Assembly (NCBI RefSeq): GCF_003334305.1
Contig: NZ_QOWS01000019.1
Origin: Escherichia coli
GTDB taxonomy: Bacteria; Pseudomonadota; Gammaproteobacteria; Enterobacterales; Enterobacteriaceae
Length of the DNA stretch: 64,000 bases
Strand: one strand, 5' to 3'
Of this stretch, positions 38,997 through 40,099 are shown piece by piece. The stretch's first letter is position 1; each line of letters opens with the position of its first letter. The position numbers and the translations under genes were made by a program. The notes beneath the pieces were generated by a model. That model was not told where the DNA came from. It made no database searches and saw only the letters and a list, made by a program, of their open reading frames with translations.

Positions 38997-40031
38997 TTAA
39001 AGCTGTGCTGCCAGAGTTGATAATAATTGTTCTGTCTGTTGCCATGATATGCATTCATCAGTAACAGACTGACCATACTCTAGCGGAAAACTATCGGATT
39101 GTTTTCCATCTTGTAAAAAGCTTTCCACCATAATGCCAGCTACATATCCTGGTATTTTTTTCCGATTATCTATAACTTGACGTGCAACGGAAATTTGCCG
39201 TTTAGCCACTTTACCGCTATTACCATGGCTACAATCAATTATCAGACGATGGTTAATACCCTCATCATGCATTAATTTCACTGCCTTAGTTATATCAGAC
39301 AAACCATAGTTAGGTTCTCTACCTCCACGTAATATTAGATGTCCATGTGGATTGCCATCGGTTAATAGTGTAGATATACTATTTGTTAAAGATGTCATAT
39401 ATACAATATGTTGTTCACGGGCTGCAATAATAGCGTCAATAGCTAAGTTAATATTTCCATCAGTACTGTTTTTAAATCCAACTGGACAATGTAAACCAGA
39501 CGCAAGTTGACGATGCGTTTGTGATTCAGTGGTTCTGGCACCAATAGCACCCCAACATATTAAATCAGCAATATAGGGAGTAAGAAAAGGATCGAGGAAT
39601 TCTGTAGCGGTTGCGACACGCATCGTTGTGATTGAAGCCAAACACTGGCGAGCATATCGTATCCCTTTCTCAACATCATAACTTCCATTTAGATCAGGAT
39701 CGTGCATTATTCCCTTCCAGCCTTTACGGGTTCGAGGTTTCTCAAAATAAGTGCGCATTACAATGTACATTTTCGATAAGTACTTATTCTGTAATACGAA
39801 CAATCGCTTCGCATAATCAACTGCGGCCTGAACGTCATGGATTGAGCATGGACCAACAATCACAAGTAAGCGAGGATCTTTTCCCAGCAAAATATTCGCT
39901 ATAATATCTCGTTGCAGAGAGATCCATGTTACGGTTTCTTCCGATACTGCGATTTCTTTATGAATCTCGCCCACAGTGGGTAAACTGCCAAGCAACTTCC
40001 CGCGGTAGATTAATTTACTAGCTGACTGCAT
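38997..40031 (-). CDS. ssbL: Class I DAHP synthase (3-deoxy-7-phosphoheptulonate synthase, AroF/G/H-like), plasmid-borne
   Basis: 344-aa low-GC ORF with DAHP synthase sequence. Gene symbol taken from recalled ColV-plasmid literature, not from a search. Confidence 0.75.
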   Translation of the reverse strand: MQSASKLIYRGKLLGSLPTVGEIHKEIAVSEETVTWISLQRDIIANILLGKDPRLLVIVGPCSIHDVQAAVDYAKRLFVLQNKYLSKMYIVMRTYFEKPRTRKGWKGIMHDPDLNGSYDVEKGIRYARQCLASITTMRVATATEFLDPFLTPYIADLICWGAIGARTTESQTHRQLASGLHCPVGFKNSTDGNINLAIDAIIAAREQHIVYMTSLTNSISTLLTDGNPHGHLILRGGREPNYGLSDITKAVKLMHDEGINHRLIIDCSHGNSGKVAKRQISVARQVIDNRKKIPGYVAGIMVESFLQDGKQSDSFPLEYGQSVTDECISWQQTEQLLSTLAAQL

Positions 40032-40080
40032 CTTGTCTCCTAAAAGCGCTATTTCAGACCATCAGTTGCACACAGTAGAT

Positions 40081-40099
40081 GATAATGATAATCATTTAC
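40081..40099. promoter_or_regulatory. Fur box in the DAHP synthase promoter
   Basis: GATAATGATAATCATTTAC matches the 19-bp Fur consensus at 17 of 19 positions, 50-68 bp upstream of the start codon. Confidence 0.6.

Follow-up and report, generated by a model that had tools for sequence, protein, structure and literature searches.

An auxiliary DAHP synthase gene, ssbL, with a Fur box over its predicted promoter beside the salmochelin locus of a ColV-type plasmid of Escherichia coli

Introduction

Escherichia coli already has three type I-alpha DAHP synthases, AroG, AroF and AroH, inhibited by Phe, Tyr and Trp, respectively, and the housekeeping genes are controlled by TyrR (aroF and aroG) and TrpR (aroH) operators. 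Why should a plasmid carry another gene for the first enzyme of the shikimate pathway, and place it next to siderophore genes? The locus considered here lies in a 64,000-nucleotide stretch of E. coli DNA (contig NZ_QOWS01000019.1 of assembly GCF_003334305.1), referred to throughout as the window. An original prediction, made from the nucleotide sequence, proposed that the gene is repressed by iron through Fur and raises chorismate supply for catecholate siderophores, and we asked how far this proposal is supported by sequence comparison and by the literature.

A gene of this kind has been described on plasmid pS88. ORF123 is the most strongly induced gene of that plasmid, its expression rising more than 100-fold in iron-depleted LB, serum and urine; it adjoins iroN, a Fur-box-like sequence upstream of it was remarked upon, its product is 45–50% identical to the three K-12 isozymes, and it has chromosomal homologues, c1220 in CFT073 and ECP_0281 in strain 536, located 20–30 kb from iro (Lemaitre et al. 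2012, PMC3438092). As summarised in citing papers (PMC6918656, PMC4723317), a later study of the gene, by then named ssbL, reported that it raises catecholate and phenolate siderophores via the shikimate pathway, that yersiniabactin is also fed by the extra chorismate, and that ssbL is an auxiliary virulence factor (Lemaitre 2014, J Bacteriol 196:1343). In CFT073, c1220 is under direct Fur control, the Fur-DNA evidence being for this chromosomal allele, and the mch genes are likewise in the Fur regulon (Banerjee et al., PMC7157518). The same gene headed the list of fitness genes from a transposon screen, and a defined c1220 mutant was confirmed to be less fit in systemic infection (Subashchandrabose et al. 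2013, PMC3855560). Our literature searches returned no report of Fur binding to the plasmid ssbL promoter and none of the activity or inhibition profile of purified SsbL. Because ssbL, its Fur box and its virulence role are already known from work of 2012–2020, finding the gene here adds no new biology in itself.

Results

The window gene is ssbL of ColV-type plasmids

The interval under study contains one long open reading frame, of 344 codons on the minus strand (Table 1). Its product matches the DAHP_synth_1 profile (PF00793; E = 9e-76, model positions 8–269 of 270) and scores above the cutoffs of the NCBIfam aroFGH model TIGR00034 (420.2 bits, cutoff 173.2) and of NF009395 (437.8 bits, cutoff 343), while falling below the curated cutoffs of the Trp-sensitive AroH subfamily NF009396 (442.3 bits, cutoff 463) and the Phe-sensitive AroG equivalog NF006723 (361.6 bits, cutoff 568). 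SsbL is 44, 44 and 49% identical to K-12 AroG, AroF and AroH, and resembles them in fold family and length; the fold is not in question because identity to solved AroG/AroF-type structures is 44–49%. All 12 catalytic and substrate-binding residues (C61, R92, K97-P98-R99-T100, R165, K186, R234, H268, E302 and D326 in AroG numbering) are intact, and are invariant both in a five-way alignment and in all 123 aligned sequences. From AroG structures, we take Cys61, His268, Glu302 and Asp326 to be the metal ligands, and Arg92, Lys97-Pro-Arg-Thr100, Arg165, Lys186 and Arg234 to bind phosphoenolpyruvate (PEP) and erythrose-4-phosphate (E4P). The intact active site and the published siderophore-boost phenotype suggest that SsbL, as its annotation implies, catalyses the same reaction as the K-12 enzymes, the condensation of PEP and E4P to DAHP.

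The coding sequence has a GC content of 39.9% (GC3 29%), whereas the window averages 48.4%, iroN 50% and iroBCDE 56%, and ssbL is therefore compositionally foreign to its neighbours; the region around it is AT-rich (38.6% GC). The original description of a low-GC class I DAHP synthase gene is thus accurate, although it did not state the strand. Two plus-strand reading frames within ssbL (39352–39510 and 39632–39904) and a 66-codon frame at 38876–39076 are unannotated in all records examined, and we take them to be chance occurrences.

Table 1. Positions of ssbL, its predicted control elements and the adjoining iro genes in the window
Feature	Position	Strand	Remarks
iroB, iroC, iroD, iroE	28584..35920	+	context; salmochelin modification, export, esterases
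iroN	35965..38142	minus	context; salmochelin receptor; ends 854 nt downstream of ssbL
Conserved cassette, 1.3 kb	38886..40193	minus	promoter, Fur box, ssbL and 111 nt of 3' flank; plasmid and chromosomal copies
ssbL coding sequence	38997..40031	minus	ATG start; 344 aa; type I-alpha DAHP synthase (3-deoxy-7-phosphoheptulonate synthase); from ORF and profiles
Shine-Dalgarno AGGAG	40037..40041	minus	5 nt before ATG; kept in F11 and CFT073 chromosomal alleles
Fur box GATAATGATAATCATTTAC	40081..40099		no strand; reads on +; 17/19, two mismatches to the 19-bp consensus GATAATGATAATCATTATC
Predicted -10 hexamer TATCAT	40085..40090	minus	promoter scan; wholly within the Fur box
Predicted -35 hexamer TTGCCA	40108..40113	minus	17-nt spacer; TTGTCA in chromosomal alleles

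Between positions 4125 and 47994 the window is collinear with pS88 (pECOS88, NC_011747) at 99.93% identity, a shared context of 44 kb. The ssbL cassette differs from that of ORF123 at only two of 1308 nucleotides, with promoter and Fur box identical; one change is silent, and the other places alanine at position 132 where the pS88 protein (WP_001190234.1) has serine, so that 343 of the 344 residues agree. Because the cassettes are near-identical and the 44-kb context is collinear, including the order of neighbours (cva operon, DUF6404 gene, ssbL, iroN), the window gene is pS88 ORF123 (pS88123), later named ssbL. The statement in the original prediction that an auxiliary DAHP synthase had been reported for ColV plasmids is therefore well founded, the two proteins differing by one residue and the genes having the same position relative to iroN and cva.

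The predicted plasmid location and adjacency to the salmochelin locus also hold. The backbone is that of a conjugative IncFIB/IncFIC ColV-type plasmid, and the 1.8 kb around ssbL is 99.9% identical to sequences in hundreds of conjugative IncF plasmids from E. coli and Salmonella Kentucky. The next gene is iroN, with iroBCDE beyond it, and on the other side of ssbL there are a pseudogene, a DUF6404 gene and yacAB remnants, followed by the colicin V operon (cvaA, cvaB, cvaC and cvi).

A Fur box covers the predicted -10 region of ssbL

The Fur box was proposed to match the consensus at 17 of 19 positions and to lie 50–68 bp upstream of the start codon, and this is what we find: counted from the A of the ATG, the box occupies -50 to -68. 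In the 64-kb window as a whole there are 13 strand-specific matches to the Fur consensus with three or fewer mismatches, occupying nine distinct positions, compared to 0.02 expected from dinucleotide-preserving shuffles of the window at the same threshold, and the matches are thus not attributable to chance. The highest-ranking promoter in a scan of the ssbL strand, TTGCCA-N17-TATCAT, agrees with consensus at 10 of 12 positions; the region has 10 promoter-like matches in all, against 7.8 +/- 2.7 in shuffles. A near-consensus 19-bp box overlapping the core promoter, which we took as the mark of a Fur-regulon member, is present at ssbL, with the -10 hexamer inside the box. Promoters repressed by Fur usually have this arrangement, and by analogy the repressor and RNA polymerase would be expected to compete for the site.

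The Fur box of ssbL stands in place of the TyrR and TrpR operators of aroF, aroG and aroH. A TyrR box search of the window gave four matches, which is the chance level, and none near ssbL; a TrpR operator search found none near the ssbL promoter. An Rfam scan of 38100–40400 at E <= 1 returned no element. The conserved 3' flank also lacks a convincing intrinsic terminator, with the 140 nt after the stop codon folding worse than shuffled sequences (z = +2.1), and the sole terminator-like site (38757..38739) is outside the conserved cassette.

The operator is conserved in chromosomal copies of the cassette

Among 5426 complete E. coli genomes, 624 (about 11%) carry ssbL, with 452 plasmid copies (~99.8% identity) and 188 chromosomal copies (~91%). 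Comparison of window positions 37900–40500 with the F11 chromosome by blastn gives a single HSP of 1309 nt at 89.6% identity, and homology stops at both ends. The shared unit is thus a cassette of 1.3 kb that starts 162 nt ahead of the ATG and ends 111 nt beyond the stop codon. The same cassette is present in CFT073 as c1220, and both chromosomal alleles (WP_001192278.1 / WP_001335133.1) are in the serX island; the F11 protein is 93% identical to SsbL. Where the plasmid copy has iroN as its neighbour, these alleles adjoin microcin H47/M genes and remnants of IS elements.

The window, F11 and CFT073 share the same operator core, TAAATGATTATCATTATCA, as well as the same -10 and Shine-Dalgarno sequences, whereas both flanks of the core have changed and the -35 hexamer differs (Table 1), in alleles that are ~90% identical overall. 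Retention of the core while its flanks diverge bears the mark of selection acting on the Fur site. Moreover, because the core is shared with c1220, the published Fur result for CFT073 can be tied to the same element in the window.

The flanks of the chromosomal cassettes (4220–9558 of the F11 locus and 40358–50000 of the CFT073 locus examined) contain IS3, ISL3 and DUF4158 remnants, and genes for the catecholate-modified microcins M and H47 (mcmA, mchF, mchI and mchB) are a few kb away. The pairing of the cassette with microcin genes recurs on chromosome and plasmid.

SsbL belongs to a siderophore-linked lineage

To place SsbL among its relatives, we built a neighbor-joining tree of about 120 of its best homologues with 100 bootstraps, excluding the inhibitor-pocket columns. 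All 100 bootstraps recover the SsbL group as a monophyletic sister of AroH, and it thus forms a clade separate from the K-12 isozymes. The nearest relatives outside E. coli, at ~70% identity, are from Citrobacter amalonaticus and Morganellaceae, followed at 50–55% by proteins of Vibrio, Veronia, Psychromonas and Shimwellia.

Siderophore genes are adjacent in all seven of the clade members whose contexts we sampled. These include genes for NRPS condensation and adenylation domains, isochorismate synthase, EntA-like and EntB-like proteins, FecCD, periplasmic binding proteins and TonB-dependent receptors, and the Vibrio vulnificus member is within a full catecholate siderophore cluster. A Fur-like box with one to five mismatches is located upstream of the start in each of the seven, at a distance of 30–75 nt in six and 226 nt in Shimwellia, and each is rarer than 6% of background windows in its own locus.

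In two Morganellaceae contigs (6814–10001) the ~3 kb upstream of the 70%-identical ortholog is nearly free of genes, with none called in one and one small reading frame in the other. A tandem Fur box (7460–7484 of one contig) is located in this stretch, and close by are a TraG_N gene and a cluster of NRPS and TonB-receptor genes, which suggests that this siderophore locus is also on a mobile element.

The inhibitor pocket of SsbL is altered

Substitutions conferring feedback resistance on AroG affect D146, M147, P150, Q151, L175, L179, S180, A202, F209 and V221 (PMC9529685). SsbL does not retain the conserved inhibitor pocket of the feedback-regulated isozymes (Table 2), and it also lacks the acidic N-terminal pair at positions 6/7. 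Across the 12 pocket positions the gain in variability within the SsbL clade is greater than for random sets of 12 positions (p = 0.025, permutation).

Table 2. Pocket residues that differ between SsbL and the feedback-regulated isozymes
AroG position	Regulated isozymes	SsbL	Rest of SsbL clade
P150	P or G	T	A, Y, T or F
Q151	Q in 9 of 10 (one H)	P	P, fixed
S180	S, invariant	H	P, H, T, R, D, N, A or L
F209	F	V	variable hydrophobic
S211	S or G	M	variable

Replacements of this kind in the SsbL lineage (Q151P, S180H and F209V) suggest insensitivity to aromatic amino acids, and the variability of the pocket points to relaxed constraint and not to a new, conserved ligand. Pro151 and Gln174, which are fixed, could however equally indicate a site that is remodelled and still functional. 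On balance we judge it an even question whether SsbL has lost aromatic-amino-acid feedback, such that flux would be set by iron and not by Phe, Tyr and Trp. We place the same even odds on the broader proposal that SsbL represents a fourth type I-alpha lineage, present in Enterobacterales and Vibrionales, linked to siderophore synthesis, preceded by Fur boxes, stripped of the ancestral inhibitor pocket (including the acidic N-terminal contact), naturally insensitive to feedback and controlled only by iron. A search of the accessible literature found neither a biochemical test of feedback insensitivity nor a characterised member of the clade.

A partial parallel is provided by PhzC of phenazine operons, a type II DAHP synthase and thus of a different family. 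PhzC too duplicates the first shikimate step under shared control with a pathway that consumes chorismate, and probably bypasses amino-acid feedback; SsbL is distinct in being type I-alpha and having a Fur box as its predicted control.

Discussion

We are confident that ssbL, carried on ColV/ColBM-type IncF virulence plasmids, encodes a fourth type I-alpha DAHP synthase of horizontal origin, is repressed by Fur and feeds siderophore synthesis. When iron is plentiful, Fe2+-Fur bound to the single operator over the -10 of a sigma-70 promoter would block transcription, an occlusion mechanism that we infer from the position of the box, and iron limitation would strongly derepress ssbL. The extra SsbL would convert PEP and E4P to DAHP and increase shikimate flux to chorismate, and thereby the supply of 2,3-dihydroxybenzoate (DHB) for enterobactin and IroB-glucosylated salmochelin, and of salicylate for yersiniabactin. 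SsbL may also escape aromatic-amino-acid control, both transcriptional and allosteric. For this model the gene identity, the intact catalytic site, the promoter and operator geometry and the conservation of the operator come from the present analysis. Iron induction has been demonstrated in the literature, as have the place of the chromosomal allele in the Fur regulon, the increase in siderophore production and the effects on fitness and virulence. Nothing that we found contradicts the model.

One element of the original prediction needs to be amended. It held that the iroBCDEN products both make and export catecholate siderophores, of which only export stands. These proteins glucosylate, export, hydrolyse and re-import enterobactin, for which the chromosomal ent genes provide the catecholate scaffold. 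As iroBCDEN does not make the catecholate, the extra chorismate must feed the chromosomal ent pathway. The central proposal, of a Fur- and iron-repressed auxiliary DAHP synthase that raises chorismate for catecholate siderophores, coincides with the published function of ssbL (PMC3438092, PMC6918656, PMC4723317).

We considered whether ssbL mainly supplies the catecholate siderophore-microcins MccH47 and MccM, which have a salmochelin-like moiety, with its adjacency to iroN a leftover of an ancestral microcin island. Both chromosomal copies examined adjoin microcin genes (mcmA and mchF in F11, mchI and mchB in CFT073), a distance of 20–30 kb from iro is given for chromosomal copies (PMC3438092), mch genes share the CFT073 Fur regulon (PMC7157518), and the plasmid neighbour is again a microcin operon (cvaAB/cvaC). 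However, IS elements and pseudogenes separate the cassette from the microcin genes in both chromosomes, homology among the contexts is confined to the 1.3-kb cassette, and distant clade members are in plain NRPS siderophore clusters that have no microcin genes. Furthermore, colicin V is not known to be modified with a siderophore. The mutant phenotype, as described in the citing papers, is also one of siderophore production (PMC6918656, PMC4723317). We therefore think it unlikely that microcin supply is the main role, although the two roles are compatible because both would draw on the same DHB pool. A more sceptical reading takes ssbL for a passenger that encodes a redundant isozyme of aromatic amino acid synthesis and has no particular link to iron, with the Fur-like sequence a coincidence of AT-richness. 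The three resident DAHP synthases and the low GC of the region, which favours Fur-like words, are in keeping with this, but the shuffled windows so rarely yield a match, the operator core is perfectly kept while its flanks have diverged, and Fur-like boxes recur in clade members down to 50% identity. Together with the more than 100-fold iron induction (PMC3438092) and the Fur-regulon membership (PMC7157518), operator conservation effectively excludes a chance box, and we regard a passenger without iron control as extremely improbable.

Alternatively, the Fur box could mainly serve a divergent plus-strand transcript, with control of ssbL incidental. A promoter-like sequence, ATGATA-N17-TATAAT (40079–40107, plus strand, 10/12), overlaps the box and faces the pseudogene/DUF6404 segment, and shiF and iucA share a divergent Fur box on the same plasmid, pS88 (PMC3438092). 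Promoter-like matches are nevertheless no more frequent here than in shuffles, the first plus-strand feature is a frameshifted pseudogene, and because homology between plasmid and chromosome ends at 40193 there is no divergent gene conserved with the box. As ssbL is itself the most strongly iron-induced gene of pS88 (PMC3438092), we consider this highly unlikely.

The preferred reading, that ssbL is a Fur-repressed and siderophore-feeding isozyme, is of interest for several reasons. The gene is a reported auxiliary virulence determinant of the ColV plasmids of ExPEC, APEC and NMEC and of UPEC islands, and it illustrates how a pathogen couples the supply of a central metabolite to iron starvation. 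If SsbL is indeed insensitive to feedback, a need for a fourth isozyme is explained, as the Phe, Tyr and Trp in host fluids would shut down the housekeeping three just as siderophores demand chorismate; it would also be a natural feedback-resistant DAHP synthase of use in metabolic engineering.

Several other features of the neighbourhood were observed. A direct repeat of ~0.8 kb (40218–41041 and 48857–49615, 81–95% identical in several segments) flanks the colicin V operon together with SemiSWEET, oxidoreductase and acyltransferase genes. The first copy begins ~25 nt past the end of the homology between the ssbL cassette and the chromosomes, and the second abuts the colicin Ia immunity gene; the repeat could be a joint of bacteriocin modules or a recombination substrate. 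Between the DUF6404 gene and cvaA (~41050–41450) are degraded copies of the yacA/yacB toxin-antitoxin genes, frameshifted and truncated in the pE956_1 annotation; pS88 has an intact yacAB copy near repA, and a 503-nt segment of the window (53116–53618) matches the pS88 yacA region near cvaA. Other Fur-like boxes are located about 440 nt upstream of iroB (28166–28190), upstream of cvaA (41736–41754; gene start 42056), upstream of the minus-strand cvi-cvaC operon (46163–46181; start 46114) and upstream of the minus-strand colicin Ia gene (51988–52006; gene 49997..51877), and one with three mismatches near an iss/Rz remnant (25960–25978) has no obvious target. Each repeat copy also contains a minus-strand DUF6404 gene of unknown function (40591–40899 and 49254–49511), preceded at 44–100 nt by the Fur-like 19-mer GATAATAATAATCAATAAC with three mismatches (40981–40999 and 49555–49573), and these two may be further small iron-regulated genes.
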